A DNA stretch of 23,913 nucleotides from a bacterium (GTDB taxonomy: Bacteria; Krumholzibacteriota; Krumholzibacteriia; G020349025), in NCBI GenBank assembly GCA_031362565.1, contig JANLSU010000086.1:1-23913 (forward strand), read 5' to 3'. The notes under the pieces were generated by a model that saw nothing but the letters and a program-made list of their open reading frames with translations, did not search any database and was not told the origin of the DNA. Within the stretch, counting starts at the first letter, position 1, and each line of letters starts with the position of its first letter. The translations under genes were made by a program, and so were the position numbers. Shown here one piece after another: positions 4-18,463 of the stretch.

Positions 4-27
4 GCGGCCCCGTCAGGACGGGGTCGC
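4..27. terminator. GC-rich stem-loop just 3' of the micro-ORF (terminator or mRNA-stabilising hairpin)
   Basis: GCGGCCCCGTC-AG-GACGGGGTCGC inverted repeat 11 nt after the TAA at 39-41. No U-tract is visible on the minus strand (followed by AAG, then the window edge). Confidence 0.5.
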
Positions 28-38
28 GGTGCGCCGGA

Positions 39-107
39 TTAGCGTCCGAACGGCACGTAGCGGGGCGCGATGCGCTTCTCCAGCTTGATGATCGACAGGT
101 TCTTCAT
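39..107 (-). CDS. 22-aa small peptide MKNLSIIKLEKRIAPRYVPFGR; putative precursor or signalling peptide
   Basis: Shine-Dalgarno GGAGGTGA (119-112) just upstream of ATG at 107, GC3-rich codons, a sigma54 promoter upstream and a hairpin downstream. An in-frame ATG at 149 sits next to the predicted TSS, so a leaderless 36-aa variant is possible. Confidence 0.75.
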   Translation of the reverse strand: MKNLSIIKLEKRIAPRYVPFGR

Positions 108-160
108 CTCGTCACCTCCGGCGGCCTTTAAAAGGTTCATCGTTTCCATGGATTCCCTAT

Positions 161-177
161 TGCACCCAACATGCCAG
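161..177 (-). promoter_or_regulatory. sigma54 (RpoN) -24/-12 promoter for the micro-ORF
   Basis: Minus strand reads CTGGCATGTTGGGTGCA: GG(175-174)-N10-GC(163-162), matching TGGCAC-N5-TTGCW spacing. Predicted +1 is near 150. It lies next to a GAFTGA-containing activator gene. Confidence 0.75.
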
Positions 178-231: not shown

Positions 232-374
232 ATACGTTAACAAACTAGATCGAGGTCCGACGGGAGTCGGCGGGATGACCGACCGAAGCAGCTTCCGTCA
301 ACTAGAGGCGACACAACATCGCAAATTACTTGAGATGATCGGTCTTATTATTTGGGATATGTGAGTATACCAGG

Positions 375-404
375 CGTCAATCGGTTTGTCGTCAATCCGA
401 GACA
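375..404. promoter_or_regulatory. Candidate enhancer (UAS) for a Fis-family activator
   Basis: Direct repeat CGTCAATC at 375-382 and 390-397, plus palindrome TGTC-N10-GACA (387-404), about 200-230 bp upstream of the -24 element and separated from it by AT-rich DNA. It overlaps the activator stop codon. Confidence 0.35.
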
Positions 405-2065
405 GATTGCTCTTTTGATGACGTCTTTCGAGGACTGCGTCGCGGCTCCACGACGATGCCGTGGTTTTTCTTCAGAGTGTGGAGGTACTGGCGAGAAACT
501 CCCAGGCGCTGGGCGGCTGCGAGCACGTTCCCGTCGCATTCCTCCAGCGCATTTTGGATGGCCTGGCGTTCGACTTCCGCCAAGATTTCGCGGAGGGAGC
601 CTTTCCCGAGATCTCGGCGACCGCCTTCCGGGGGCTCTTCGGAGGTCAGGAACTCGCCGGTCAGCGTCGCGTCCGGGTCGGCGAGCGCCACCGCCTGATG
701 GATGCAGTTTTCGAGTTGGCGCACGTTGCCGGTCCAGTCTCGGGCGAGCAGCCAACGCAGGGCGCTGGGCGCCAGTTCAAGGTTTCCCTTGTCGTACTGC
801 GCCGCGAATCGCCGCGTGAACGCCTCGGCAAGGAGCAGCAGGTCATTGCCGCGTTCGCGTAACGGCGGGACACGAATATTCACCACCCGGAGGCGGAAAT
901 AGAGATCGTCGCGGAATTCTCCGAGTCGAATCTTCTCTTGAAGGTCCTTGTTCGTCGCGGCGATCACCCGTACATCGATCTTGCGATCCTGGGATTCGCC
1001 GAGACGCCGAATCTCGCGCTCCTGCAGCACGCGCAACAGTTGCGGTTGCAAGGTTAGCGGCAATTCGGCGATCTCGTCAATAAACAGCGTGCCGCCGTTC
1101 GCCGTTTCGAACAATCCAAGCCGGTCCTCGATCGCACCCGTGAACGCGCCCCTCTTGTGGCCGAACAGTTCGCTCCCGAACAACTCAGCGTGCAAGGAGC
1201 CCGCATTCACCGCGACGAACGGCCCGGTCCGCCGCGGGCTGTTCAAGTGCAGCGCCCGTGCGACGAGTTCCTTGCCTGTACCGGTTTCACCAAGCACGAG
1301 CACGCTGACAGCCGACCTCGCAGCTCGGTCGATAATTTCGAACAAACGCTCCATGGCCGGACTCGCCCCGACCATGGAATCGAAAACCGGTTTGCCGGCA
1401 ATTTGGCGCCGCAGACTCTCGTTCTCGGCTTCGAGCCGAGTCTTGTTGGCAAGCAGCTCGCTGTGGCGGCGGGCATTTTCGATGGCGAGTGCGGCTTGTG
1501 CTGCAAAGGACTCGAGCAGCACCCGGTCGCTCGCGTCCAGTGCGCGCCCCGGCTTGCGGCTATCGGTGTAACAAACGCCGAGCACGCGTCCACTCGCAAC
1601 AAGCGGCAGGCACGCATAGCTGCGCAATTGGAGCAGGTGGATGCTGTCGCGAATGCCAACCGAACCTTGCGTCAACACGTCTTCCACATACAACGCGTTC
1701 GCCGAATCGGCAACACTGCGGATCGTGCTGTGCGGAATCGCGAATGTTCCGCTGTCGACCTGTCCGGCCGCAGTCCCGTGGGACGCGCTCAATTCGAGTT
1801 CGCCTTGCGCATCGAACAGCAGCAGTGAGCCGCGTTCGGCTGCGGTGATTTCAACGAAGGCTTCGATGACGGTTTGCAAGAGCGGCTGCAGGTCGAGAAT
1901 CGAGGTGACTTCGCGCGCCAAGCGCATGACGTCGCGAAGTGCCGCGTTCAGGTCCTCGGCGGGCCGCGACGCCGCGGCGTGTTCGACGCTTGCCGCCGCG
2001 CCAGTCACGCGTCTCACATGGTCGCTGAGGATCTCCGCGGACCGGGTCGGCTTGCCGTCTGGCAT
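392..2065 (-). CDS. sigma54-dependent enhancer-binding protein (GAF + AAA+ + Fis-type HTH), 557 aa
   Basis: RBS GAGGAGG before ATG 2065. N-terminal GAF domain (ERGSLLL...YACLPL...GVCYTD...FAAQAALAIENAR). Walker A GETGTGKE, ELFGHKRGAFTGA, FIDEI, RVIAATN, FRDDLYFRL, WTGNVRQLEN. C-terminal HTH AAQRLGVSRQYL. Confidence 0.95.
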   Translation of the reverse strand: MPDGKPTRSAEILSDHVRRVTGAAASVEHAAASRPAEDLNAALRDVMRLAREVTSILDLQPLLQTVIEAFVEITAAERGSLLLFDAQGELELSASHGTAAGQVDSGTFAIPHSTIRSVADSANALYVEDVLTQGSVGIRDSIHLLQLRSYACLPLVASGRVLGVCYTDSRKPGRALDASDRVLLESFAAQAALAIENARRHSELLANKTRLEAENESLRRQIAGKPVFDSMVGASPAMERLFEIIDRAARSAVSVLVLGETGTGKELVARALHLNSPRRTGPFVAVNAGSLHAELFGSELFGHKRGAFTGAIEDRLGLFETANGGTLFIDEIAELPLTLQPQLLRVLQEREIRRLGESQDRKIDVRVIAATNKDLQEKIRLGEFRDDLYFRLRVVNIRVPPLRERGNDLLLLAEAFTRRFAAQYDKGNLELAPSALRWLLARDWTGNVRQLENCIHQAVALADPDATLTGEFLTSEEPPEGGRRDLGKGSLREILAEVERQAIQNALEECDGNVLAAAQRLGVSRQYLHTLKKNHGIVVEPRRSPRKTSSKEQSVSD

Positions 2066-2137
2066 CGGACCTCCTCGAAACGGCGGCTCGCGCCACCCAT
2101 TGGGGCAATGGTGGCAATCAAGCGCATGGACACCTTC

Positions 2138-2166
2138 AGTATAGCGCACCCGGCACGAACCGTCGC
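2138..2166 (-). promoter_or_regulatory. Possible sigma70-type promoter for the activator gene
   Basis: -10 TATACT (2143-2138) with a weak -35 GCGACG at 17-nt spacing. Confidence 0.3.
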
Positions 2167-2310
2167 GCCGATGGCCGATGCCGGATGGTTGCGTACCGTT
2201 CGGAACCCAGGCGGCAGCGCCAAGAGCCGAAACCCACCGCGCGGCGCCGCGCCGGACCACGCCCAGCGTGCGTCCAGGCACTGCGTTGCCGGCCCCCCGC
2301 CGGCGCCCCC

Positions 2311-2327
2311 CTGGCACGGATGTTGTT
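2311..2327 (+). promoter_or_regulatory. Candidate sigma54 promoter for the kinase operon
   Basis: CTGGCACGGATGTTGTT: consensus -24 TGGCACG with correct spacing, but -12 reads TTGT rather than TTGC. It lies about 80 bp upstream of ATG 2407. Confidence 0.5.
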
Positions 2328-2406
2328 GGTGTGTTTGAGGATCGCCAGGTGCGCGGCCTGCGCACCGCGAGCCGGAACGGCGCTTTCCCGCGGGCTTGGA
2401 GCCAGC

Positions 2407-5400
2407 ATGTTGTTCGACGCTACGAACCGTTACCGCCCGGAGCGCGAAATTGGCCGCGGCCGGCGCGCCGTGGTGACGGCAGCGGAAGACACCTGGCTCG
2501 GGCGGCGGGTAGCGCTCAAGCGCGCCCTCGACCCGCAGGATGATGCGCTCCTCATCGAGGAAGCCCAACGCTTGGCGCGCGTCGCCAACCCCTGTGTCGT
2601 CCAACTCCTCGACCTCGTTCCCGGGCCACCCGTGACCCTCGTCCTCGAGCTCCTGCAAGGCGAGACGCTGCGCGCCCGCGTCGTGCAAATCGGACGCCTG
2701 CCGCTCGAAACGGTGGACGGCTTGTTGTTGCGGATGTTCGACGCGTTCGAAGCGCTGGACAGTGCGGGGATCGTACATGGCGACGTGAAACCCGAGAACA
2801 TCTGGATGACGGCCGACGGTGGCCTGAAGCTGTTGGACGTCGGTGCCGCCGGCGATGCGACGGCCCTGTACGCGGCGCCCGAAATCGCCCTCGGCGGCAC
2901 CGCGACCTCGACCACCGATCTCTACGCGGCGGCGACGGTGGCCTGGGAGCTACTGGCCGGGCGGCTGCCGTTCGATGCAACCGATGCAACCGAACTCGCG
3001 CTCCGCAAGCGCACGCGTGCAGCGCCCAGTCTGGATCAGGCCGGCGCGCCCGTTCCGGCCGGCGTCGAGGCATGGTTCACGCGCGCCCTCGCCATCGATC
3101 CGGCGCAGCGATTCGGCAGCGCGCGCGACGCGCGCCAGGCGTGGCGCACGGCAATCGGCGTCCGATTCGCAGCGGTCTCGCCGGCCGTGCGTTCGAGCGT
3201 CGATCTCTATCCCGAGGCACGCCGCCGGGTGTTGGACGCCGACCAACTGACGCGTCCTGGTTCCGGCGGCACGATCGTCGTGCAGGCGCTGCCGGGAGCC
3301 GGCGCGAGCACGTTCCTGCTCGACGTGGCCCAAGCTTGCCAACGTGCCGGGTCGGACGTCGTGTTCCTGCGCCGCGCAGTCGCGCGGCGGCACGCGGCCT
3401 GGGGCGACTTTCGAGCTGCCGCCCGCCGGGCGCGCCGCATCGGTATTGCCCTTCCGGCGCCGCGGCCGCACGCCGCGGAAGAGATGCAGCAGGACCGCGT
3501 GGCGGCTGCACTTCGCAAGCGGGCTCGCACCCGGCATGTCGTCGTGTGTGCCGACGATCCCGCCACCTGCGACGGGCCAACGCGCCGGCTGTTCCTGCGC
3601 CTCGCGGCGGACGCGGCCCCGGGGGGCTGGACTTGCGTGGCGACCGTCCCCAGTGTCAGCGCGGGCCGCATCGCCGCACGGACTCGGGACGCGCTCACCG
3701 CAAGCGCCCAGACCGTGACAGGCCTGGAATCACCGGATCCGGCTGCCTGGCGCGCCTTCCTCGCCCTGCGTCTCAAAACCAGTGATGTCAGTGACGCGCT
3801 GGCGGCGCACGTGCGCGGCCGCACGCATGCAAACCCGAGCCTGGCGGTTGCGGTTCTACACGAGCTTTGTGAGAGCGACGCGCTGCGCCCGGCCGACGGT
3901 GGATGGATGTTCCGGCCCGAGCGCGCCGGCGACGGCCTGCCGGCAGCCGCAGTACGAATCCTCGGCCGGGTTCTTGCCGGACTGACGCCCGAGCGCCGCG
4001 GACTGTTGCGCGTCGCCGCGTTGCACGGTGGCAGTTTCGCAGCGTCGACGGTCGCGCCAGCCGCCGGCTGGCCGGCGGCGGATGTCGAGGCCGCGTTGCA
4101 CGAGATCGGGCTCGAGCGCCGGTGCCTCGAATCCGATGGCCCGCGATGGCGCTTCGCTCCACCGCTCCTCGCGACGCTCTTGGCGGCCGAGTTGCCGGCC
4201 GCGTCACGCCGCGAGTTGCACCACCGGTGCGCCGAGATCCTAAGCGGCGTGGGTGCCGACGATGATGCGATCGGCATGCATTGGTTCCTCGCCGGTGAGT
4301 TGGAACAGGCGCTCCCCGCCTTGCAGCGGGCCGGACACGCGGCATTGACCACTGGCAACGCGGAATTGGCGGCGCGCTGTTTCGGCTGGGCGTGCGAAGC
4401 GGCCGAGGCGCAGATCGAGGATGAAACCGGTGCGGCGCGACGCGTCGAGCTCGGACTGGCGCACGCCCAGGCGTTGCACGCCCTCGCGGCATGGGATGCA
4501 GCCGGCGTCCAGTTGGACACCAGTCTGACCTTGGCGCGGGCGTGGGGACTCGACGCGGCCGAAATACGCGGCTTGCGCGCCGGCGGTCAAATGGAATATG
4601 CGCGTAGCCGGTTCGACGAGGCCGTGGCGCGCTACGCCGCCGCACAGGAGTGTGCGTCGCGCCTCGGGGACGAGCACGAACTGCACGAACTCGCCCTCCA
4701 AATCGGCAATATCCATTTCGAACGCGGTGATCTAGACGCTGCCGCCGCCGAGTACCAGCGCACGCTGGACTACGCGACGGCACACGCCGATCTCGACCTG
4801 GAGGCACGCGCCGCCAACAACGTTGGGCTCGTGGAGAGCATCCAAGGGCGCAAGGAACAAGCCGTTCAATTCTTCAACCGCAGCCTGCAGGGATTCACCG
4901 CGCTCGGGCGCGGTGCGGCCGTGGCCCGCCTCTACCAGAATATCGGCATGATCTACCTCGAACTCGCCAACTGGGCCGAGGCGCGTAATTTCTTTCGCCG
5001 CTGCATGGAAGAGAGCGAGCGCCACGGTGAACCGGCGCTGCTCGCGGTGTCGTGCCTCGACTTTGCGGAAGCGACATTTCAACTCGGCGCCCATGCAGAA
5101 GCAGCACCGGCACTGACGCGCGCGCTGACGATTTGCCGTGAGCGCGGCGACGAGATAGGCGTGGCGAATGCAATGCGCTTGCAGGCGCAACTCGCCGCCC
5201 ATGCCGGCGACATGGCCGGTGCGGAACAACTTTTGATCGATGCCATCGGCAAGCTGGAGGTATTGGGCCAGGCGCTGCACCTTGGGCAGTGCTGGAAAGA
5301 TCTCGGCGCGCTGCGCCTGCGCGCCGGGCAGCGCGTCGCGGCCTTGCAGGCGCTCGACGAGGCCCAGCGGCGTTTCGGACCGCTCGACGCCGCCCAGCAC

Positions 5401-5460
5401 ACTGCAGAAGTCGAGGCATTACGCGCGCGCTGCCGAGAGGAGTCTGTGTGCCACCCGTGA
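2407..5460 (+). CDS. Hanks-type Ser/Thr protein kinase fused to a degenerate P-loop (STAND/AAA_16-like) domain and MalT-like TPR repeats, 1017 aa
   Basis: GGAG RBS before ATG 2407. Kinase motifs IGRGRRAVV, VALK, HGDVKPENI, DVG, YAAPE, DLYA, GRLPF. Central ALPGAGASTF, VVVCADD and RTHANP. C-terminal TPR-like helices (LQIGNIHFERG, ANNVGLV, YQNIGMIY). No transmembrane segment seen. Confidence 0.9.
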   Translation: MLFDATNRYRPEREIGRGRRAVVTAAEDTWLGRRVALKRALDPQDDALLIEEAQRLARVANPCVVQLLDLVPGPPVTLVLELLQGETLRARVVQIGRLPLETVDGLLLRMFDAFEALDSAGIVHGDVKPENIWMTADGGLKLLDVGAAGDATALYAAPEIALGGTATSTTDLYAAATVAWELLAGRLPFDATDATELALRKRTRAAPSLDQAGAPVPAGVEAWFTRALAIDPAQRFGSARDARQAWRTAIGVRFAAVSPAVRSSVDLYPEARRRVLDADQLTRPGSGGTIVVQALPGAGASTFLLDVAQACQRAGSDVVFLRRAVARRHAAWGDFRAAARRARRIGIALPAPRPHAAEEMQQDRVAAALRKRARTRHVVVCADDPATCDGPTRRLFLRLAADAAPGGWTCVATVPSVSAGRIAARTRDALTASAQTVTGLESPDPAAWRAFLALRLKTSDVSDALAAHVRGRTHANPSLAVAVLHELCESDALRPADGGWMFRPERAGDGLPAAAVRILGRVLAGLTPERRGLLRVAALHGGSFAASTVAPAAGWPAADVEAALHEIGLERRCLESDGPRWRFAPPLLATLLAAELPAASRRELHHRCAEILSGVGADDDAIGMHWFLAGELEQALPALQRAGHAALTTGNAELAARCFGWACEAAEAQIEDETGAARRVELGLAHAQALHALAAWDAAGVQLDTSLTLARAWGLDAAEIRGLRAGGQMEYARSRFDEAVARYAAAQECASRLGDEHELHELALQIGNIHFERGDLDAAAAEYQRTLDYATAHADLDLEARAANNVGLVESIQGRKEQAVQFFNRSLQGFTALGRGAAVARLYQNIGMIYLELANWAEARNFFRRCMEESERHGEPALLAVSCLDFAEATFQLGAHAEAAPALTRALTICRERGDEIGVANAMRLQAQLAAHAGDMAGAEQLLIDAIGKLEVLGQALHLGQCWKDLGALRLRAGQRVAALQALDEAQRRFGPLDAAQHTAEVEALRARCREESVCHP

Positions 5461-8154: not shown

Positions 8155-9369
8155 TCACGGGACGAGGGGCCAGACCGGCACGAAGTCGCCGGGCGCCAGA
8201 TGATCGATTTCGGGCCGCAGGACGATCTGGCAATTGGCGCCGGCGTACGCCAAGAGATCGCCCGACCCCGCGTACTGCACGCGGTCGACGCCGCTCGGAG
8301 ATTGGCGCCCTGGGAGCAAGAGCCACTTGGAATGGCGGCGCTGCCACGCGAAGCCGGCGCGCGCCGACTGGAATTCCGGAACCGCTGCCGTCTCGCCCTC
8401 GAGAAGGCGCATGGCGAGCGCCGCGAACAACCGGAAGGTCGTCAGCGCTGAAACCGGGTTCCCCGGCAGTCCGAAGACGATGCCGCGTTCGTGCACGCCG
8501 CACACCGTCGGCTGCCCGGGCTGCAACAGCACGCGTTGAAAGAGAAAGCGCACCCCGGCCGCGGCGAGCGCCTGGGTGACGAAATCATACGCCCCCATCG
8601 ACACGCCGCCCGTCACCAGCAACACGTCGTGTTCGAGACCGCGCTCGAGGGGCGCCTGCAACGCCGCCGGCGTATCGCGCGCCGCGCCGAGCTGGGTCAC
8701 GCTCGCGCCCCATGCCGCCGCGAGCGCTTCGAGCATCGGGCCGTTGGAATTGCGGATGTGAGCCGGTCCCGGCGCGGATTCGTGCGGCACGAGTTCGTTG
8801 CCCGTCGACAGCACCGCGACCCGGGCCCGGCGTCCGACCCGCACCGTCGAGGCACCCAGCATGGCCAGCCCGCCGAGATCCGGGGGCCGCAAGCGAGTGC
8901 CGGCCGTGAAGGCACGGTCACCGGCGCGTGCCTCAGAGCCGCGCGGTGCGATATTGGCGCCGGCTGCGACCGGCGCATACAGATCGACGCGATCAGCGGC
9001 GAAGCCCGACGAGTCCTCGACCCGGAGCACGGCGTCGGCGCCCGGTGGCACCGGAGCACCGGTCATGATCCGCACGACCTCGCCCGCCGCCAGCGTGCCG
9101 CGGAACGGGTCGCCGGGAGTCGACTCCCCTACCACCCGGCGCGTGCACGGCGTGTCGCGACGTGCCGACTCGATTTCGGCGGCCCGCACCGCGAACCCAT
9201 CCATGGCGGCGCGATCGAATGCCGGCATGTCGCGGTCGACCGCCCAGTCTTGACGGAGAACGCGCCCGCTCGCGGCTCGCAGCGCGACGCTTTCGTCGCC
9301 GAGCGGCTGGACGGCGTCGGCAATGCGGCGCCAGGCCTCGCGTACATCGATGGGTTCGATCACGTTCAC
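8155..9369 (-). CDS. moeA: Molybdopterin molybdotransferase (gephyrin-like)
   Basis: DMPAFDRAAMDGFAV, RIMTGAPVPPGADAV, STGNEL, IRNSNG, TGGVSMG, FGLPGNPVSA. GTG start overlaps the upstream stop. Confidence 0.95.
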   Translation of the reverse strand: MNVIEPIDVREAWRRIADAVQPLGDESVALRAASGRVLRQDWAVDRDMPAFDRAAMDGFAVRAAEIESARRDTPCTRRVVGESTPGDPFRGTLAAGEVVRIMTGAPVPPGADAVLRVEDSSGFAADRVDLYAPVAAGANIAPRGSEARAGDRAFTAGTRLRPPDLGGLAMLGASTVRVGRRARVAVLSTGNELVPHESAPGPAHIRNSNGPMLEALAAAWGASVTQLGAARDTPAALQAPLERGLEHDVLLVTGGVSMGAYDFVTQALAAAGVRFLFQRVLLQPGQPTVCGVHERGIVFGLPGNPVSALTTFRLFAALAMRLLEGETAAVPEFQSARAGFAWQRRHSKWLLLPGRQSPSGVDRVQYAGSGDLLAYAGANCQIVLRPEIDHLAPGDFVPVWPLVP

Positions 9370-10862
9370 TCCTCGGACAACGCCACGAAACGCAGCCGGG
9401 CGCGGGCCCGGTACAAGTCGAGCAGAGCCTCCGCGCTCCCGAGCCGCGCCGTCGCCGCATCCACCTGCCCCGCCAGATAGCGCTGCGTATCGATGAGCCC
9501 GCGTTCGTAGCGTTCGCCATCGATGCGCTGCAATTCATCCGCCAGGCGGCTCGCCGCGGCCAGAACCGCATGGCGGCGCGCCGCATCCTGCATTTGCCGC
9601 ACTGCATCCCGCACCTCGAGCTCGAGGCGCGAACTCGCGTCCGCCGCATCGAGCCGGCGCAGCGCAATTTCGGTGGCGTCGGCACCGTCGGTGCGCGACG
9701 CCCGCCCGCCGTCCCACAACGGCACATGGAGCGTGACGAGAGCCGACATGGCGTTGGCCGACAAGCCGTCGAGCGCGCGGTCGAGCTCAGATTCGTTGGC
9801 GCCGCCGCCGTAGCGCAACGCCAGATCGACGGTCGGCACGCGCGGCCGGTGGGCCAATCGATCGCGTTCTAGTAGCGCGACCTCCGCCTCCACGAGTCCG
9901 ACGTCATCGCGTTCGCGCCGCGCCCGTTCGAGCCACGGTGCGGCGGAATCCGGCGCCGCGAACGGTTCCAAGATTTCCACGAGACGCAAAGAGTCGGCCA
10001 GCGGCAACCCGAGAAACACCTTGAATTCATCTTCCGAGCGCGCCAACTGGGACTGCTGTTCGGCAAGACGTGCGTCACGTTCGGCGCGATACACCTCGGT
10101 CTTGAGCCGCTCGACGTCGGGCAAAAGCCCAGCCGTGACCTTGCGCCGCGTCACCTCGTAGGACTGCGCGGCCGCCGTGGCGGCCGCTTGGACGATTTCG
10201 AGCGCCATGCGTGCATGCAGCAGATCCAGATAGCGCGCCACCGCGTCGAATTCGAGTTGGGCGTTCGACGTACGTTCGACGCTGCGATTCCGCACCTGTT
10301 CGACGGCGGCGCGATGCAGGCTGCGGCGTTCGGGATCGTCCCCCAAGAGCGGCACGTCCAGCCCGATGGATGTCGCGACTTGGTAGTCGCGGCGTGCGGC
10401 ACGCACCCCGGTCGGCGTCGTGGTCTCGTCCCGATAGACAACCGCCCCGAGCGCCGAGACACTGCCGTGCCAAGGCAACAACTGCCGCGCGCGCACGCTG
10501 CCGGACGCGTTGCGGCTGGTCGTGGTCGTCTTGACGTAGACACTCTGGAGCACCGGTTGACCGGTCGCCGTGTCCGGCTGGGTGCTGGTCTGTAGGCCGA
10601 CACTGAACTCCCGCGAGAGGTCGGGAGCCGCGAGATCGAGCCCGAGGTTCGGCCACACCGCACGGCGTGCCGCGTCATAGCGCAGCGCATCGCGCCGCGC
10701 TTGCAAGCCGATCCGGCGCGCCGCCGGGCTCTGGGCCCGCGTCAAGCGCACGGCATCCTCGAGCGTCAGAACATGGGTCGCCCCGGTGGCTGAATGAGCC
10801 GCGAGTGCGACCAGGCACCCGATGATGCAACGCGACCGCACGCCTCGCCGCCGATCACTCAT
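9366..10862 (-). CDS. TolC-family outer membrane efflux protein
   Basis: Signal peptide, LTLEDAVRL, WPNLGL, RYLDLL, LHVPLWDGG, RYERGLI, DLYRARARL. Start overlaps the permease stop (ATGAGTGA). Confidence 0.85.
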   Translation of the reverse strand: MSDRRRGVRSRCIIGCLVALAAHSATGATHVLTLEDAVRLTRAQSPAARRIGLQARRDALRYDAARRAVWPNLGLDLAAPDLSREFSVGLQTSTQPDTATGQPVLQSVYVKTTTTSRNASGSVRARQLLPWHGSVSALGAVVYRDETTTPTGVRAARRDYQVATSIGLDVPLLGDDPERRSLHRAAVEQVRNRSVERTSNAQLEFDAVARYLDLLHARMALEIVQAAATAAAQSYEVTRRKVTAGLLPDVERLKTEVYRAERDARLAEQQSQLARSEDEFKVFLGLPLADSLRLVEILEPFAAPDSAAPWLERARRERDDVGLVEAEVALLERDRLAHRPRVPTVDLALRYGGGANESELDRALDGLSANAMSALVTLHVPLWDGGRASRTDGADATEIALRRLDAADASSRLELEVRDAVRQMQDAARRHAVLAAASRLADELQRIDGERYERGLIDTQRYLAGQVDAATARLGSAEALLDLYRARARLRFVALSEE

Positions 10863-12060
10863 GGCGCAGCGCCACGATGGCATCGACGGTCGCGGCCCGG
10901 CGCGCCGGTGCGGAACCCGAGACGAGGCCGGTCGCGAGCGCCGTGCCGGCGGCCAACAGGATGCCGCCGGGCGTCACCAACACGGGCCAGTGTGCGGCAC
11001 GCGCCACGATGAAAGTGCCGGCGACGCCCAGCATGATGCCGGCGATACCGCCGGCAATGCCGATGGCAGCGGCCTCGAAGACGAATTGCGCCACGATATC
11101 CGCCCGGCGTGCCCCCACAGCACGCCGCAAGCCGATTTCACTCGTGCGCTCGACGACGCTCGCAAACAGGATGTTGGCGATGCCGATGCCGCCGACCAGC
11201 AAGCTGATCCCGGCGATGCTGCCCATGACGATTTGGAAGATGCGCTGGGTGCGCTGCGCTTTGCGGATGAGTTCCGACGGGACGATCACGGCGAAATCGT
11301 CTGCACCCGCATGCCGGCGCAGGAGCGCCCGCTCGACGACCGCACCGAAGAGCACGGGATCCGCTCCGGGCGCGAGCTGCAACACGAGGCGCTGCACCGC
11401 GCCGGGATCGTGGCCGCCGGGCGGGAGACTCGCGGCCGTTGCCAGCGGCACGAAGAGCGGCGGCTTGCCGTTCGCAAGCGCCGCGGTGCGCACCACACCC
11501 ACGACTCGCAGCGCCCGGCCGGCGACGCGCACGAATTCGCCGACCGCCGGACGGGCCGGAAACAACGCCAAAGCGATCGGCGTCGACAACACGCAGACCG
11601 CCGCACCGGTGGCAGCATCGAGATCCGACACGAAGCGCCCCGCGGTCATTTCGGTGGCGAGGATTGCGGCGTACGCGGGAGTGACGCCGGTGACGGTCGC
11701 ATCAGCACTCTGGGCGCGCGCCCAAACCTTGTGGTCTGCGACCCGCGCCACGGTCGCCGCTTCGATGTGCGGCGCGAGTTCGATGACGAGGGCCGCCGCA
11801 TCCGCGGCGATCAGCCCGGAAACGGCCGCTCTGCCAACCGCCGGCCGGGCTTCGACGTGCAGATTGTGAATTCCGAGGCGGCGGTATTCGCCAAGCGCCC
11901 GCGTCTCGGCGCCCTTGCCGATGGCGAGCATGCAGATGACGGCACCGACGCCGAAGACGACACCGGAGGTCGTCAGCGCGCTGCGCAAGGGGTGGGCGCG
12001 TAGTGCTTCGGCGCCGATCGCGATGTTGCGTCCGAGTAGCGCGCGGTTCACAGTGGTCAT
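10855..12060 (-). CDS. MacB/FtsX-family ABC transporter permease (no nucleotide-binding domain)
   Basis: LRSALTTSGVVFGVGAVI, periplasmic core, IAGISLLVGGIGIANI, SVVERTSEIGLRRAVGA, PARRAA..D..VALRHE. Confidence 0.93.
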   Translation of the reverse strand: MTTVNRALLGRNIAIGAEALRAHPLRSALTTSGVVFGVGAVICMLAIGKGAETRALGEYRRLGIHNLHVEARPAVGRAAVSGLIAADAAALVIELAPHIEAATVARVADHKVWARAQSADATVTGVTPAYAAILATEMTAGRFVSDLDAATGAAVCVLSTPIALALFPARPAVGEFVRVAGRALRVVGVVRTAALANGKPPLFVPLATAASLPPGGHDPGAVQRLVLQLAPGADPVLFGAVVERALLRRHAGADDFAVIVPSELIRKAQRTQRIFQIVMGSIAGISLLVGGIGIANILFASVVERTSEIGLRRAVGARRADIVAQFVFEAAAIGIAGGIAGIMLGVAGTFIVARAAHWPVLVTPGGILLAAGTALATGLVSGSAPARRAATVDAIVALRHE

Positions 12061-13292
12061 TCCTCGGTCCGGGCAGCGACCGGTTCACGGAGCGCCAACA
12101 GGTCTCCGGGCTGGACACCGGTCTTGAGCACGACGTGAAAATCGTTCGAGCGCCCGGTTGTGACCGCGACCCGTTGCACCCCGCGGGGCCCGCGGCGCCA
12201 AACGTACGCGCCGTTGTTGTCGGTATGCACGGCTTCGATGGGCGCGAACAGGACGTCGTGCAGTTCCTCTGCGTGCACCGTCACGGTCGCCGTCATGCCC
12301 GGGCGCAGTCTCGCATCCGCCCCCTCCAGCAAGACCTCGTAGTCGAAGACCTTGACGCCCTCGGTGTCGGGCATCTCGCGGCCGAGAACATTGACCCGGC
12401 TCACGGTGCCGTGCAGGAGAGTGTCGGGCAGCGCATCGATCCGCACGTCACACGCCAAACCGGCATGCAATTGATTGACTCGTGATTCGTTGACGAAACT
12501 CGCGACCCGCATTTGCGCCAGATCGGGAAGCTCGATGACGACCCCGCCGTAGTACAACTGGTCACCGATCTTGACCTTGGTGTTGCGGTTCCCCGACCAG
12601 TTCGTCCCGTACACCACCAGCCCGCGCGTCGGCGCCACGAGCGTATGATTGTCCAGAGCTTCGTCTTCTGACGTGAGCTGGCTCTGCAACGTCGAGATCG
12701 CGACTTCCTGCTCGGTGATCTCGGCACTGTCGATACTTTTCTGTGCCGTCAGCTTCGATTCGGATTGTTTGAGATCAAGCTGGGCACGCTGCAATGCAAG
12801 TTGGACTTTCTCCTGCTCGACGCGCGCTTCGTACTGCATGTTGGCGACGCCGATTTCGGCCAGCCGCAAACCGGCGCGGCGATCCTCGATCGCCGCTTCC
12901 ATTTCCGAAAAACGCGCCGTCTGGGTGGCGTGGAGTTTTTGCAGATTGGCGCGGGCGCTGGTGAGACGGCTCCGCAGGTCCTCGACCCGCCGGGTCGCTT
13001 CGCTGGCATCGAAGCGCGCCAGCGTGTCACCGGGTGCGACCGTACTTCCCTCGCCAATCAACCACACAAGTTTGGCAGCGCTCGAGCGCAGCCGCGGCAC
13101 CCCGAATGTCAGCGAGCGAACCGCCTGCAGTTCCCCGGCGGTCGTGAGTTCGATTCGCAAGTCGCCGCGCTGCACCGCCGAAAAAGGCCCGCCGCGATCC
13201 GCTCCCCCCCGCCGGCTGGCGCACAACGCCCCAACCACAATCACCAGCCCACCCGCCACCAGCCCGATCGTGCGCATTCTGGGAACTTGCAT
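12057..13292 (-). CDS. MacA/HlyD-type periplasmic adaptor (membrane fusion protein)
   Basis: N-terminal TM segment, EGSTVAPGDTL lipoyl-like motif, long coiled coil, LVAPTRGLV, LRPGMTA, APIEAV. Start at 13292 (GGAG RBS) or 13277. Confidence 0.9.
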   Translation of the reverse strand: MQVPRMRTIGLVAGGLVIVVGALCASRRGGADRGGPFSAVQRGDLRIELTTAGELQAVRSLTFGVPRLRSSAAKLVWLIGEGSTVAPGDTLARFDASEATRRVEDLRSRLTSARANLQKLHATQTARFSEMEAAIEDRRAGLRLAEIGVANMQYEARVEQEKVQLALQRAQLDLKQSESKLTAQKSIDSAEITEQEVAISTLQSQLTSEDEALDNHTLVAPTRGLVVYGTNWSGNRNTKVKIGDQLYYGGVVIELPDLAQMRVASFVNESRVNQLHAGLACDVRIDALPDTLLHGTVSRVNVLGREMPDTEGVKVFDYEVLLEGADARLRPGMTATVTVHAEELHDVLFAPIEAVHTDNNGAYVWRRGPRGVQRVAVTTGRSNDFHVVLKTGVQPGDLLALREPVAARTEE

Positions 13293-13508
13293 GACACTCC
13301 AACCCAAGACGCCCAAAGCCCATGATACGCGGATTCCCCCCGAGGGTCCGCCCAGAAGGCTCGGGGTGCCCGGGGCAAAGCCGTTGGCGCACAGCGGGTT
13401 GGCGCAAGCTCCAGACGCACGTCACGAGCACCCAGCTTGCAAAATCACGGGGGCGGGAGTGCGTGTCACGGCAACGCGCCCGAGTCATGCCGGGCCCGAA
13501 TGCACCGC

Positions 13509-13681: not shown

Positions 13682-16600
13682 TCAGCGCACCAAAATCATC
13701 TTCCGTTGCATCGACGCATCCCCCGTCGTCAGCCGGTAGAAGTACACACCGCTCGCCACCGAACGCCCCGCCTCGTTGTGCCCGTCCCAAGTGGCATCGT
13801 AGTGCCCCGGCAAGAGCCGGCGCGCAACCAACGTTCGCACCCGGGCGCCGCGCACATCGAACACTTGTAATGCAACGAACTGCGCCGCCGTTCCACCGAC
13901 ATCGAAGCGGATGAGCGTCGTGGGATTGAACGGATTCGGAATGTTGGGCTGCAACCCGGTGCGGAACGCCGGCGCCGTGCCGCCGTCACCGACATCGGTC
14001 GGAAGACGGTAGTCCGTCAGGCCATTGCGCAGCAAGTTGCCCTTCAACGTTCCCCACGGGACGCGATGGCGAACGTACAGTCCTGGGAAGTGCCACGCGT
14101 AGACTTGCTGATCCCAGCCGGAGACAATCAGATCGACACGGCCATCGCCATCGGCATCGGTGAGCAACGGCGTCGCACGCACTTCGGCTCCGAGACGCAC
14201 CGGGAAGCCGGGGAAGATGGTGCCGTTCGGATTGAAGGCGTTGAGGATGCCCGACTCGCCACCATAGACGATCTCCATCACGCCGTCGCCGTTCAGGTCC
14301 CCGACCACCGGCGACGACTCCGACGCGCTGTGCACATCCACCGGCCAACCGGGACGGACGTTGCCGTTGGAGTCGAACATGTACAGGCTGCCGGTGCTCA
14401 CATCGCTGCCGGTGCTCGCCGCAACGAGTTCCAGCTTGCCATCGCCGTCGAAATCCGCGAGCGCCACCGACGGGGTGAGCGCCGCCCAGAGATTCGGCAG
14501 CGGCCGCGGCCAACCCGGAGCGTCGGTGCCATCGGGACGGAAGACATAGAGCTGCCCGTTGACGCAGGGCACCACGATCTCGAACGTGCCGTCGTGATCG
14601 ATGTCGCCGATGCTCGGCGAGGCGTCGACCTTGTCGCTCAAGGTCCGCGGCCAACCCGGTGCGACGGTGCCATTGGCCCGCAGCACATAGACTTTGCCGT
14701 TCTCGGTTCCGAAAATGATCTCCGGCGTGGGGTCGGACGGCAAAACGTTGGCGACCGCCGGACCGCCGCGGCTCCAAGTCGGCAAACCGGGGATCGCATA
14801 GAAAACGCCGTTCGTCGCCGGATCCGCATCCCCGTCTCGCACCTCGGTGCCATCCGCGTGCCAGGCGTAAACGCGCCCATCGAGCGCCAGCAGGACGATT
14901 TCGAGACGGCCATCGAGATCCAGGTCGGCAAGAGCGGGCGTCGCCCAAATGCTGTGCGTGGTCGACACGATCGAGTGCGGCCAGCCGGGCCGGACGGTGC
15001 CGTCGGGACCGAAGACATAAACGGTTTTCGTATCGAACGTGCACGCCACGACCTCGTCGCGGCCGTCGCCGTCCAGGTCGCCGACCGCAAGGCCCGGCAT
15101 GAAGTTGGCGGTCGTCGGTGTGTACACACCCTGGGTGGCGGCGTTGCTGTCGCCGTCCCGCACTTCGGTGCCGTTCACATGCCAAGCGTAGAAATGGTCC
15201 GCGGCGCCGGCGACCACTTCCACGTGTCCGTCGCCATCCAGATCGGCGACGGCCGGACTACAGTTGCTCTGCAGTCCCAGAGTTTGCGGCCAGCCGGCGA
15301 GCGCGCCGGGATTCGTCGTCACGCCAAGCGACATCGTGCGGAGGCTCTCGTTGCCGGCCGAGTCGACCGCCGCAACCGAATAGAAATACTGCGTCCCGGG
15401 TTGCAAACCCTCGTCGCGGAAGTAGGTGGAGTTGCGCACCAGGTCGGTGCTCGCCCGCAACCACGGACCATAGTTGTGCGGAGCGCGATATACGACATAG
15501 CCCGCGACGTCGGACGAGACGCTCTTGCCCCAGGTCAGGGTCGTGACTCCGGATCCGTCGCTCGGATCGCCCACCAGTCCCGTCAACGGCTGCGGCCGCC
15601 GTGTTTCGACCGGCAAGCTCCAGGTTCGTGCCTGGGCATCGAGAACCACGAGCAACATGCGGTTGTTCTGCGTGACGTTACTCTCGCGGATACGGAAGGC
15701 CCCAGTGCCGACACCAAGGTGACCGATGCTGCCGAAGGTCGTAGACCCGTTGACGATGGTGACATCCGGGTCGAGTGACAGCAGTTGGCCGGTCGCACCC
15801 GCCAGTTGCGCGAACCCGTAGTTCTTCAACTCGACGCGCAGATCGTACGTTTCATTGGCCTGGGCGACGGCGTCCCCATTGCCGGTTACCGAATCGTCGA
15901 CCCAAATGCGTTGCACCCGTGGGGAAACCTGCAACAGATCGAGGCTGACCCGGTCATTCCACTGGGTCGATTGCACCGTCTTCAGAACGAGATCGATGCC
16001 GACCCGTTGCTGGTCGAAGGCCCCGGCCGCGACATTCACCACGACGGGTCCGGACCAGATGCGCTGGCCCGCCGCCATGGTGCCGACGTTGGCGATGCTG
16101 GTCGAGAGCAGGAGCGCGGGCTCGGTGCAGAACGCTTGCAACGTGACGCCTTCCGCCGGCAATGTCCCGGCGTTCTCGATTTCAAAGCGCACCTGCGCGG
16201 CCTCACCGGCTTCCAGCACGGCGTTGCCGTTGCCCGCCGTACCAACGCCCGAATCGACGACCTGAATCGCGCCGGTCGAATGCAGCACCGCGCCGCCGTA
16301 GGGCGTCACCGTCACCTCGGCGCGGTACGGCCGCACGCCGGCGCCGGTCACCGCAAGGTGCGCGGTACCGGCCACTTCGGCGGTCAGATTGAGCGCCGCG
16401 ACACCGGTCAGTCCGGTGCGCCCGACGACGTAGAAGTCACCCGGTTTCCACAAGCAGACGGTGGCGCCTTGCACCGGGTTCCCGGCCTCGGTGACGGTCA
16501 CCGTGAACGTCCGAACGCCCTGAAAGATGTTCGGCGCGTGCGTCACGGCAATCGTGCGCGGCGTGTTCGTCCACAGCGTCAGTTCCGGGTCGCCCAGGTA

Positions 16601-18307
16601 CGCGGTGATGAAGTACGACCACCGAAACGCGTTGTCATCGAAAGTCTGTGCGACGTATTTGAGGCGCGCCTGATGCAGGCACTCCGCCGCACCCGGGTAC
16701 CCTTGGCTGTACAGGGCGTTGAACCAGGCTTCCTGAAACACTTGGATGTTGTCCGGATACGCCTCGCGCGCCGAACCGATGACGCCGATCGCCCCACCGG
16801 TCGGACACAGCAGGAATTTCTCCGCCAAACAGGGGAAATCGAAAGCCGCCGCCGAGCAATTCAGCATGTGCAGGAAAAACGGCCGGGTCGCGTTCTGGAG
16901 TCCGAGAGCGTCGGCGATGCTCGCCGATGCGTCGCCGAGCGACATGGAGTACCGGAACCCGTGTCCAATGTGGGTGACGATCGACTGGCCGGCATTCATG
17001 GCCGCCAGTCCCACGGCACGCGTCAATTTGATCGCACCCGGGTAGAACTGGGGGGTTTCATCGAGGCGGCTCAACACCCGGCCGGCGGTGTCGAGGTGGT
17101 TCAGAATGATCAGACGTTCGGCGTTGTCGGCGCCGTTCTTGAGGATCGGATCGCCCGCCTTGTAGCTCGCCGGCCAAATGACCTCGGCCAAGAATCCCAT
17201 CTTGTTCTGGTAATCGAGCACCGTGGGTTCGCAATAGGCTTGCAACTTGGCGAGGAGCATCTGCACTTGGGTGGAATTGACGACCGGCAGGCGCCCGACC
17301 CACAGTTCCGGCAACAGGTCGGCATTGTCGGTGGTGTTGTCGACATAGACGAACCCTTCGCCCCAGCGAGCGTCGCGGTCGCCGTTCCAATTGCCATCGA
17401 GACAACCGTAGTACAGGTCGGTCGGAACGCTCTCGCCTTCCAGCGAGTACACCGACGACGCATAGCGCGCCGGGACGAGGTCGGTGTCGCCACCGATGAG
17501 TACCGAGCGGATCCCCCAGAGCTGGTAGGCCTGGCGGAAGAAGTCGCGCAACGTCTCGGCGACGTCGGCGCCATGCGGATAGTTCTGCAGCACCCACTCG
17601 ACGCTTCGAACCACGGTCGGCACGCCGGTTCCGGTCTTGTAGTCGGCGTAGGCCTGGAACGACGGCACCAACGCGTCGCGGGTCAGAATCAGCATTTGCA
17701 CCGCGCTGCCCTCGAGGCTTGGAGCCTCCGTGGGCTTGAAGCCGGCGGCGGCCGGCGGTGTCGCGGTAAGGAGCGGCGCGGAATAATTCGCCAATTCGTC
17801 GGGATTGACGACGCAGTCGGTCAACTCGCGGCGGACGTCCAGTTCGCGCAGGGCATCGGCGCGCCGCGGATGGACGACGGCCGTCACCGCGCCGGTCTCC
17901 AGTTCGAGCGTCGCACCCTCCGACGCGTGCGCCACAAGATCCGCGCGCCGCACCGCGACCGCCGCAATGCCGTAGCCGTGGTAGAAGCTGGTACCGAGCA
18001 CCGTCGCCGGCCACGGCGCGTGGACCGCGTGGAGTTCTTGTTCGGGTGCGAGCAGAATGCAGAGCACAACGCGCTCACTCGGAGCGCCGGCCTGTGGTGC
18101 CACCTTGTCAGCGACCCCGGGCGCTGTCGCACGCGCGGCGGCCGCGGCACTTTGCAGGCGCGCCGCAGTGACGCGCACGCGCAGGGTCGCCGCGAGCGCC
18201 GTGGACGGCGCCACACCCATGCTCATCAAGACGGCAACGAGGAAAAAACGTGCAATCGGCATTGCACGGGCCGTGGTAGGAACGGCGCGCGACGCAACCG
18301 CAGGCAT
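13682..18307 (-). CDS. Secreted C25 (gingipain-family) cysteine peptidase with Ig-like, FN3, FG-GAP repeats and a FlgD-Ig/T9SS-like C-terminal domain, about 1541 aa
   Basis: AAGGAG RBS before ATG 18307 (alternative 18262) and a signal peptide. VLIGGD..LVP, PTDLYY, VGRLP, catalytic-type HIGHG and LNCS, YLGDPEL. FN3 motif LQPGTQYFYSVAAVDSAGNES. Multiple DLDGDG..E repeats. C-terminal PNPFNP...WDG...SGVYFYRL...RKMILVR. Confidence 0.92.
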   Translation of the reverse strand: MPAVASRAVPTTARAMPIARFFLVAVLMSMGVAPSTALAATLRVRVTAARLQSAAAAARATAPGVADKVAPQAGAPSERVVLCILLAPEQELHAVHAPWPATVLGTSFYHGYGIAAVAVRRADLVAHASEGATLELETGAVTAVVHPRRADALRELDVRRELTDCVVNPDELANYSAPLLTATPPAAAGFKPTEAPSLEGSAVQMLILTRDALVPSFQAYADYKTGTGVPTVVRSVEWVLQNYPHGADVAETLRDFFRQAYQLWGIRSVLIGGDTDLVPARYASSVYSLEGESVPTDLYYGCLDGNWNGDRDARWGEGFVYVDNTTDNADLLPELWVGRLPVVNSTQVQMLLAKLQAYCEPTVLDYQNKMGFLAEVIWPASYKAGDPILKNGADNAERLIILNHLDTAGRVLSRLDETPQFYPGAIKLTRAVGLAAMNAGQSIVTHIGHGFRYSMSLGDASASIADALGLQNATRPFFLHMLNCSAAAFDFPCLAEKFLLCPTGGAIGVIGSAREAYPDNIQVFQEAWFNALYSQGYPGAAECLHQARLKYVAQTFDDNAFRWSYFITAYLGDPELTLWTNTPRTIAVTHAPNIFQGVRTFTVTVTEAGNPVQGATVCLWKPGDFYVVGRTGLTGVAALNLTAEVAGTAHLAVTGAGVRPYRAEVTVTPYGGAVLHSTGAIQVVDSGVGTAGNGNAVLEAGEAAQVRFEIENAGTLPAEGVTLQAFCTEPALLLSTSIANVGTMAAGQRIWSGPVVVNVAAGAFDQQRVGIDLVLKTVQSTQWNDRVSLDLLQVSPRVQRIWVDDSVTGNGDAVAQANETYDLRVELKNYGFAQLAGATGQLLSLDPDVTIVNGSTTFGSIGHLGVGTGAFRIRESNVTQNNRMLLVVLDAQARTWSLPVETRRPQPLTGLVGDPSDGSGVTTLTWGKSVSSDVAGYVVYRAPHNYGPWLRASTDLVRNSTYFRDEGLQPGTQYFYSVAAVDSAGNESLRTMSLGVTTNPGALAGWPQTLGLQSNCSPAVADLDGDGHVEVVAGAADHFYAWHVNGTEVRDGDSNAATQGVYTPTTANFMPGLAVGDLDGDGRDEVVACTFDTKTVYVFGPDGTVRPGWPHSIVSTTHSIWATPALADLDLDGRLEIVLLALDGRVYAWHADGTEVRDGDADPATNGVFYAIPGLPTWSRGGPAVANVLPSDPTPEIIFGTENGKVYVLRANGTVAPGWPRTLSDKVDASPSIGDIDHDGTFEIVVPCVNGQLYVFRPDGTDAPGWPRPLPNLWAALTPSVALADFDGDGKLELVAASTGSDVSTGSLYMFDSNGNVRPGWPVDVHSASESSPVVGDLNGDGVMEIVYGGESGILNAFNPNGTIFPGFPVRLGAEVRATPLLTDADGDGRVDLIVSGWDQQVYAWHFPGLYVRHRVPWGTLKGNLLRNGLTDYRLPTDVGDGGTAPAFRTGLQPNIPNPFNPTTLIRFDVGGTAAQFVALQVFDVRGARVRTLVARRLLPGHYDATWDGHNEAGRSVASGVYFYRLTTGDASMQRKMILVR

Positions 18308-18434
18308 ACAGCGAGGCTCCTTCGGTGTCCGACGAATCACGGGACCATCAAGCGGTCCCGACACACGGGAGCAGTGGTTCGCGAGTCTGCGCCTCCGGAT
18401 TGGAAGAAACGAGCCAGCCAGAACGAACCTCCAG

Positions 18435-18463
18435 ACTGTACCATTCCAGGCGTTCTCGTGCAA
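18435..18463 (-). promoter_or_regulatory. sigma70-type promoter for the C25 peptidase gene
   Basis: TTGCAC-17nt-TACAGT with an extended -10 TGn. Confidence 0.5.

Follow-up and report, generated by a model that had tools for sequence, protein, structure and literature searches.

Can a reading frame of 22 codons, lying almost against the end of a contig, be a gene, and what becomes of its product if it is? The question is raised by the first bases of contig C79 (JANLSU010000086.1) of a Krumholzibacteriota genome (GCA_031362565.1, here G000; 5.4 Mb, 133 contigs, 65% G+C). The stretch analysed, referred to as the window, comprises the first 23,913 bases of this contig. As it starts at contig base 1, just 38 bases lie 3′ of the stop codon of the peptide. 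An initial annotation, made from the sequence of the window, had described here a small transcription unit driven by sigma-54, with a promoter, a ribosome-binding site (RBS) and a micro-peptide open reading frame (ORF), of a kind that gene callers miss. Comparison with related DNA confirmed the MKNLSIIKLEKRIAPRYVPFGR ORF as a real, previously unannotated micro-peptide gene skipped by gene callers; promoter, RBS and ORF are as described, the ORF and RBS recur on 13 stretches and the promoter on 11 of these. With modest confidence, the peptide is taken to be a short precursor under sigma-54 control, the leader of which is probably cut after Ala-Pro by a neighbouring protease for export of the core, RY[VLM]PF. 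Genomes, contigs and loci are denoted below by the letters G, C and L.

The reality of the gene rests on its conservation, because neither the promoter match nor the downstream hairpin is significant alone. The peptide ORF is present in 21 copies on 13 DNA stretches, from this genome (three copies), one related metagenome-assembled genome (MAG) and ten metagenome contigs. The two further copies in this genome lie in tandem on contig C33 (MKKLTVTKLEKRLAPRYVPF twice), 3′ of a second TGGCAT-N6-TGC motif. A hidden Markov model (HMM) of the peptide found the family in two of the 208 species genomes of the phylum, G000 and G002, the latter a MAG from another genus of the same family; matches with E >0.02 were weak, and only their lengths were inspected. 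A degenerate DNA pattern for LE[KE]RxAPRYxPF gave 14 matches on 10 metagenome contigs, all of them true copies, and the exact degenerate DNA pattern of the peptide had no match in 40 relatives. Some of the contigs are near-duplicates (L042 and L045, and largely L039 and L043), so that about eleven independent lineages are represented.

The copies follow the consensus M[KQLN]KL[STA][ILV][ITVL]KLE[KR]R[IL]APRY[VLM]PF and then TGA, with a length of 19-20 residues against 22 in the window. The ATG, the RBS and the length are kept across copies, and the 14 distinct peptides have 12 invariant residues, including L9, E10, A14 and P15. Residues 8-20 are the best-conserved part of the peptide and the C-terminal residues beside the stop are invariant. 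Phe followed by TGA ends 20 of the 21 copies. The Gly-Arg (GR) tail is peculiar to the window copy, which reads TTC GGA CGC TAA where the others have TTC TGA, a difference due either to alteration of the stop codon or to insertion of 6 nt. Mean pairwise identity across ten aligned loci is 0.33 in the spacer, 0.41 in the 5′ untranslated region, 0.73 in the promoter and 0.95 in the RBS, with 0.79 for codons 1-8 and 0.94 for codons 9-20; the islands of conservation coincide with the palindrome described below, the promoter, the RBS and the ORF. For residues 9-20 in the copies found by pattern, this conservation is partly circular, as the search pattern required them. The position of the ATG, the RBS, the position of the stop, the promoter and codons 1-8 lie outside the pattern and are nevertheless conserved, and the G002 copies came from the HMM rather than from the DNA pattern. 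The initial annotation had proposed to look in relatives for the ORF, the RBS and the promoter, and all three are retained.

The sigma-54 promoter of the window (Table 1) would carry little weight by itself, with one match against 0.19 expected and at least one match in 18 of 100 shuffled sequences. A TGGCA[CT]-N6-TGC motif is found 60-77 nt 5′ of the first ATG in 11 of the 13 loci. In one of the remaining two the upstream sequence is just 51 nt long; in the other, L040, it extends 152 nt to the contig start, and the motif is absent from the 120 nt examined. A palindrome lies 114-137 nt upstream of the promoter in nine of the ten loci tested, the tenth being too short in sequence, and occurs in both of the locus types set out below. 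Its background in the genome is 0.26 per kb, and the perfect form GTCGTC-N4-GACGAC occurs on C33 and L046. Of 48 sigma-54-like sites in the genome, only four have the palindrome at such a distance, the two peptide loci included. The gene upstream of the peptide encodes an enhancer-binding protein with Pfam matches to Sigma54_activat (2.6e-67), GAF (1.1e-14) and HTH_8 (1.7e-09) and a visible GAFTGA motif; its true start is probably near 2065. The gene rpoN is present in the genome (440 bits, above cut-off). We infer that the palindrome is the binding site of this activator and that one activator drives both loci. A third site combining palindrome and sigma-54 promoter, on contig C123 (TGGCATCACGCGTGCAATAGGAAG), is a separate observation: about 100 nt without an ATG are followed by a strong hairpin and a T run, and it is a candidate sigma-54-dependent small RNA, possibly of the same regulon.

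The fate of the product is approached through the neighbouring genes. Two types of locus are recognised. Type A (the window, L038, L039, L041, L043 and L044) has the order activator, one peptide gene, protease gene, and the activator gene precedes the peptide in the five related loci as it does in the window. In type B (C33, L037, L040, L042/L045, L046 and probably L047) one promoter serves two to three peptide genes in tandem, all of them with an RBS of their own. The next same-strand gene after the peptide in L038, L041, L043 and L044 encodes a protease with HExxH and NxxPxxxxDG motifs, which matches the NCBIfam model NF041824 (daptide biosynthesis intramembrane metalloprotease) with E-values of 1e-59 to 1e-61 and the YydH/LiaK epipeptide protease model more weakly. 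Maturation or export genes had been expected by the initial annotation beyond the left edge of the window. In part this was borne out, as a peptidase/exporter with a domain like the recognition element (RRE) of ribosomally synthesised, post-translationally modified peptides (RiPPs) stands directly downstream in these four syntenic contigs and at the start of contig C102 of this genome. The other enzymes it had named, radical SAM, YcaO and LanB-like proteins, were not found, and nor were methyltransferase or aminotransferase genes, in Pfam scans of the neighbours at the 13 loci.

The protease at the very start of C102 is the single homologue in this genome. Its N-terminal part is a soluble domain and its C-terminal part an HlyD-type adaptor; between them lies a membrane core of the M50 type, in which a crude hydropathy count shows six clear hydrophobic segments and a weaker one. 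NF041824 is matched over model positions 10-370 of 379 (198.6 bits, E 1.6e-58), HlyD_D23 at 1.2e-19 and HlyD_3 at 2.1e-17; the match to Peptidase_M50 is weak and under cut-off (E 0.0023, 17.7 bits), with HExxH present. Both HExxH and NxxPxxxxDG are invariant in 65 aligned protease homologues, among which Pfam recognised HlyD in 65, Peptidase_M50 in 59 and PqqD in 27 (best E 6.9e-9). At positions 17-88 the family profile matches TfuB1, a lasso-peptide RRE (E 0.011, over 20-87), and PqqD (E 0.079); the N-terminal domain is, on these profile comparisons, PqqD/RRE-like. The fusion family comprises 287 proteins at E <=0.001 among 8000 candidates scored and extends over many phyla, its sources including Latescibacteria, Verrucomicrobia, Nitrospiraceae, Gemmatimonadales, Vicinamibacterales and Zixibacteria. 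The protease of the L038/L044 lineage has about 407 residues and is without the HlyD adaptor. An ORF 3′ of the short L044 protease was considered as a split-off HlyD domain and rejected.

Peptide and protease are assigned to one locus in this genome from two observations. The initial 100 bases of C102 can be aligned to the spacer that is conserved between peptide and protease in relatives, and the gene order of the window mirrors that of L043 (kinase, activator, peptide, protease). For these reasons base 1 of C79 is placed next to base 1 of C102, across a short G-rich gap. From synteny, the gap would comprise tens of bases and contain hairpin 1 of the element described below. A 92-residue HU/IHF-like gene is convergent with the protease in both C102 and L044, and the operon therefore ends at the protease. 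Proteins of the IHF type often assist the looping of sigma-54 promoters; the presence of this neighbour may also be plain synteny. An ORF on the plus strand 3′ of the protease, conserved at 52% identity, was rejected as an antisense shadow of the convergent HU/IHF-like gene.

The spacer between peptide and protease contains a two-hairpin element common to four type A loci. After the second, GC-rich hairpin comes CTTTCGGGG; in L043 a T run takes its place. Of 33 pairs, 9 show compensatory changes, and the loop GAGCGCGAAACGAGGGGCGATC is nearly invariant; Rfam gave no match in the window or in 10 loci. This conserved terminator-like hairpin stands about 90-120 nt after the peptide stop in relatives and is also found 3′ of the tandem arrays. 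In the genome of the window its position would fall beyond the contig break. As a terminator-like hairpin lies between the genes, the peptide is probably made mainly from its own short transcript, expected to start near window position 150 and to measure roughly 200-250 nt, and the protease is probably supplied by read-through or from a separate promoter. The hairpin which the initial annotation had assigned to the end of the unit folds no better than shuffled sequences (z -1.33; matched by 25 of 200) and lacks a T run ahead of the contig end; its standing is weak.

The proposed mechanism would begin with the binding of the GAF enhancer-binding protein to the GTC-N10-GAC palindrome and the activation of the sigma-54 promoter, both at the window locus and at the second locus on C33, with its two tandem peptide copies. 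The leader, M-K-x-L-x-x-x-KLEKR[IL]AP, would then be bound by the cytoplasmic PqqD/RRE-like domain of the protease. The intramembrane HExxH metalloprotease (M50/site-2-type) would cut after Pro15 and pass RY[VLM]PF out of the cell, and the HlyD-type periplasmic adaptor, fused to the protease in this genome, would link it to an outer-membrane channel. A leader of residues 1-15 with cleavage after Pro15 is inferred by analogy with the daptide protease MpaP and the epipeptide protease EpeP. The division into a 15-residue leader and a 7-residue core had already been suggested from the window; the split after the sequence ending in RIAP agrees with the daptide precedent, and the core is reduced to RY[VLM]PF, with GR as a private two-codon extension. 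No tailoring enzyme is present in the operon, and the product is therefore most likely a pentapeptide that is unmodified, or modified elsewhere. Its action would be extracellular, with signalling as the most plausible role. Of the two fates first offered, secreted signal peptide or RiPP, that of a modified RiPP is unproven, with no tailoring gene in the operon. In one G002 copy (L037, 3572-3631) the predicted core is RYLPF, which differs at a single residue from RYLPT, the insect neuropeptide proctolin; this is probably a coincidence.

A bolder version of this proposal, which is speculative and judged unlikely, is a peptide-pheromone circuit in a diderm of the Fibrobacterota-Chlorobiota-Bacteroidota (FCB) group. 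The GAF activator and the divergent kinase would control an exported, unmodified RY[VLM]PF pentapeptide, released and exported by the leader-reading protease. The tandem locus under the same activator would serve as an amplifier, giving the positive feedback typical of quorum sensing.

Several observations weigh against a leader-cutting protease and an exported core. The C102 protease is below the NF041824 cut-off of 300 bits, and is thus a homologue rather than an equivalog, and its own N-terminal domain does not reach Pfam PqqD alone. Three type A protease genes are without HlyD, so that the system does not depend on the adaptor. In this genome the adjacency of peptide and protease spans a contig break and is drawn from synteny; an independent assembly of the probable source sample extends the contig 89 nt past base 1 of the window and gives no bridge to C102. 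The MAG G002 (71% complete) has tandem peptides, and the protease was not found in it with this query. Co-transcription of peptide and protease is not assured, given the terminator-like hairpin between them. KLEKRIAP and the daptide motif ELExMEAP have L, E, A and P in register, which amounts to four of eight positions. The GR tail of the window copy would give a different product. Lastly, conservation is equally high in the predicted core and in the leader, as would also suit a peptide acting whole.

This last point leads to the first alternative, that the 20-mer acts whole and uncleaved, exported or intracellular, as a cationic effector or as a ligand or regulator of the protease, activator or kinase. 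The peptide would then be a basic 20-mer with an N-terminal alternating hydrophobic stretch, and the protease would have another substrate or would only usher the peptide. The initial annotation had expected a conserved leader with a variable core; such a pattern is not seen, as residues 8-20 are the most conserved and nearly invariant, an appearance that would also suit a whole-acting peptide. The lack of tailoring genes at the locus fits it too. It is nonetheless considered unlikely, since xLExxxAP sits where the daptide leader ends, according to the available part of the preprint (bioRxiv 10.1101/2023.03.08.531785), and since the intact HExxH/NxxPxxxxDG site and the RRE-like domain in the neighbour together imply recognition and then cleavage.

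A modified RiPP precursor is a less probable alternative, with the tailoring enzymes encoded elsewhere or of an unrecognised type, for example the GT-C/PMT_2-like glycosyltransferases near both loci. In the portions of the literature available, the known setting of RRE-fused M50 proteases has so far been RiPP pathways, and several tandem precursor genes are described as typical of RiPP clusters (bioRxiv 10.1101/2023.03.08.531785). On C33, L045 and L046 the arrays have a PMT_2/TPR gene just upstream, and on C102 a GT-C-like gene is found 0.5 kb past the protease. This reading is regarded as quite improbable given the result of the Pfam neighbour scans, in which no locus had any of the five kinds of tailoring gene, and the end of the operon at the convergent HU-like gene. 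The GT-C/PMT_2-like proteins of C102 and L046, considered as close paralogues, were rejected as such (BLASTP E 0.027). A cis-acting leader ORF, the translation of which (for example by stalling at the PRYVPF-stop end) would act on the two hairpins downstream and so govern protease expression, would agree with the conserved two-hairpin element, its terminator-like second hairpin and compensatory pairs, and with the invariant stop-adjacent residues, but is very improbable, as two to three tandem copies, each with its own RBS, at a second locus without a protease gene misfit an attenuator and the same terminator-like hairpin also follows the tandem arrays.

Table 1. Positions of the peptide locus in the window and of associated features on related sequences
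Feature	Sequence	Position	Strand	Remarks
Peptide ORF, 22 codons, MKNLSIIKLEKRIAPRYVPFGR	Window	42..107	-	ATG 107..105; TAA 41..39
Ribosome-binding site, GGAGGTGA	Window	112..119	-	Ends 4 nt 5′ of the ATG
Predicted leader, residues 1-15, MKNLSIIKLEKRIAP	Window	63..107	-	C-terminal xLExxxAP motif; aligns with daptide leader ELExMEAP
Predicted core RYVPF with window-only GR extension	Window	42..62	-	RY[VLM]PF then TGA in 20 of 21 copies
Sigma-54 promoter, TGGCATGTTGGGTGCA	Window	161..176	-	GG 175-174 (-24), GC 163-162 (-12); canonical spacing
Palindrome GTC-N10-GAC, GTCGCCTCTAGTTGAC	Window	297..312	-	Candidate activator-binding site; 136 nt upstream of promoter
GC-rich hairpin after peptide stop	Window	4..27	-	-16.2 kcal/mol; weak standing
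Enhancer-binding protein gene, GAF + sigma-54 AAA+ (GAFTGA) + HTH_8	Window	392..2365	-	Longest ORF; Pfam
Divergent Ser/Thr kinase gene with C-terminal TPR region	Window	2185..5460	+	Pkinase 9.3e-23; TPR_12 8.5e-16
TolC-like protein gene	Window	9366-10883	-	Row spans 9366-13316
MacB-like FtsX permease gene	Window	10855-12060	-	
HlyD-type adaptor gene	Window	12057-13316	-	
Gene for 1593-residue protein	Window	13682-18463	-	Peptidase_C25 (gingipain-like)
Protease gene	G000, C102	108-2330		740 residues
HU/IHF-like gene	G000, C102	2417-2695	-	Convergent with protease
HU/IHF-like gene	L044	2801-3079	-	Convergent with protease
Two-hairpin element	L038	1959-2095		
Two-hairpin element	L041	735-861		
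Two-hairpin element	L043	6037-6165		
Two-hairpin element	L044	1287-1415		
Two-hairpin element	G000, C102	1-75		
PMT_2/GT-C-like gene	C33	22133-23869	-	With TPR
PMT_2/GT-C-like gene	L045	1445-3505	-	With TPR
PMT_2/GT-C-like gene	L046	1814-4081	+	With TPR
PMT_2/GT-C-like gene	C102	2795-4795	+	
Palindrome with sigma-54 promoter, TGGCATCACGCGTGCAATAGGAAG	G000, C123	~107785	-	Candidate small RNA

The remaining features of the window and of its relatives (Table 1) place the locus in its surroundings. In L043 the divergent neighbour of the activator is likewise a kinase (Pkinase + AAA_16 + TPR). The type B arrays on C33, L045 and L046 lie 3′ of a PMT_2/TPR membrane glycosyltransferase-like gene. The genes 3′ of the type B arrays are unrelated; malate/lactate dehydrogenase was identified on L040 by Pfam and on C33 from a reading of the N-terminus. 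Genes of the PMT_2/GT-C-like kind adjoin both locus types, with TPR in the members on C33, L045 and L046. At 9-13 kb from the peptide gene, the window contains a row of TolC-like, HlyD and MacB genes, which may provide the protease-adaptor fusion with an exit through the outer membrane. The window also encodes a 1593-residue protein with Peptidase_C25, FG-GAP repeats, fn3 and an FlgD_ig-type C-terminal domain.

Ten other genomes of the phylum hold distant homologues of the protease, mostly 33-37% identical. The upstream flanks of all 10 were searched with the leader regular expression [LIVM][EDQ]-x2-4-[AGS]P, which found no such ORF, and eight were inspected more broadly, the other two having less than 40 nt of upstream sequence; no sigma-54-like motif was seen upstream of these homologues. 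In L052 (G058:C599, 50-214) the distant protease lies directly 3′ of the Cys-rich, SPASM-like C-terminus of a radical SAM gene, and probably belongs to a different peptide-maturation system.

The combination of a sigma-54-controlled micro-peptide with a leader-cutting RRE-M50 protease, as proposed here, is not yet described in the literature searched. In the parts of that literature available, nothing was found on M50-HlyD-RRE proteases with a precursor peptide, and the sole paper on M50-HlyD fusions was PMC4452313. RRE-fused intramembrane proteases have so far been characterised only in Gram-positive RiPP pathways (daptides and epipeptides). Fusions of M50 with HlyD are common in Acidobacteriota, Verrucomicrobiota, Gemmatimonadota and related phyla, and their substrate is not named in the literature searched. 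The locus would offer a near-minimal test case: a single activator and a single protease accompany one precursor of 20 residues with a recognisable leader, tailoring genes are lacking, and the predicted product has 5 residues and a mass that can be sought directly, calculated for RYVPF as an [M+H]+ of about 681.37. Should cleavage and export be shown, a large and so far unstudied protein family would gain a defined function, micro-ORFs skipped by gene callers could be mined with a leader motif, and peptide signalling in diderms could be put to the test. On the pheromone reading, the RRE-M50(-HlyD) machines widespread in soil and sediment phyla would export peptides under guidance of the leader and without an ABC transporter.

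How, finally, does the locus stand beside the systems already known? Two resemblances suggested by the initial annotation, to pearlins and to LEPRxLL-type motifs, do not amount to membership. Pearlin systems, in which a scaffold peptide goes with a PEARL enzyme and an M50 or TldD/E protease, also pair a small peptide with a membrane-bound M50 protease, but according to the available text of a review (PMC10885120) their M50 enzymes remove one C-terminal residue and not a leader. The small LanB-like PEARL gene was not found among the neighbours of any locus, and pearlin identity was rejected on that ground; a whole-genome search with PF04738 gave no match, and is uninformative as the controls were equally silent. 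The LEPR-XLL tag (NF012209, ‘LEPR-8K’) shares the core motif L-E-x-R-hydrophobic, but its cargo consists of giant surface proteins rather than a 20-residue peptide. Membership of this 24-position model (>=17 bits) was rejected, as no NCBIfam family matched the peptide at E up to 10 and the genome search gave one unrelated match of 13.4 bits and none on the peptides.

The epipeptide system (YydF/EpeX with YydH/EpeP) likewise joins a small peptide to an M50 protease of the intramembrane kind. In the available text of the same review (PMC10885120), EpeP is regarded as both cleaving its epipeptide and exporting it. Unlike epipeptide loci, the present locus has no radical SAM epimerase or ABC transporter beside it, and NF058609 scores 40 bits against a cut-off of 225. 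Epipeptide identity was rejected on the missing radical SAM neighbour and on this low score.

A close parallel is found in the daptides (MpaA/DapA with MpaP/DapP). In the sections of the preprint available (bioRxiv 10.1101/2023.03.08.531785), daptide precursors adjoin RRE-fused site-2 proteases, their leader motif is ELExMEAP, with P(-1) as its last residue, and the leader is removed by MpaP, an RRE-dependent intramembrane peptidase. Here too the precursors are short and often present in several copies, L, E, A and P have the same spacing in a motif that would end at the cleavage site, and the neighbouring protease has an N-terminal RRE-like domain and an M50-type core homologous over nearly the whole of NF041824. 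There are also differences. The invariant C-terminal Thr of daptides is not present, as 20 of the 21 copies end in Phe and the window copy in Arg, and the tailoring genes DapB/C/D/M, for DUF-RRE (DapB), alcohol-dehydrogenase-like (DapC), aminotransferase and methyltransferase proteins, were not among the neighbours in the Pfam scans of the 13 loci. The host is a diderm, the protease is fused to an HlyD adaptor, control is by sigma-54 and an activator, and the predicted core has five residues. No NCBIfam precursor model matches the peptide at E up to 10. Daptide identity was rejected for want of the C-terminal Thr and of DapB/C/D/M genes and with the protease under the equivalog cut-off.

The fusion of an M50 core to an HlyD adaptor is shared with the ‘type I secretion-related’ module (PMC4452313, PLoS One 2015), which has been proposed as the inner-membrane part of an exporter that works without an ABC transporter. 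The GAF-HlyD, HlyD/biotin-lipoyl and SecA_DEAD genes of that module, as listed in the part of the paper available, are not beside the C102 protease. The same part of the paper names no substrate for the module, whereas at the present locus both a candidate substrate gene and its regulator have been identified.

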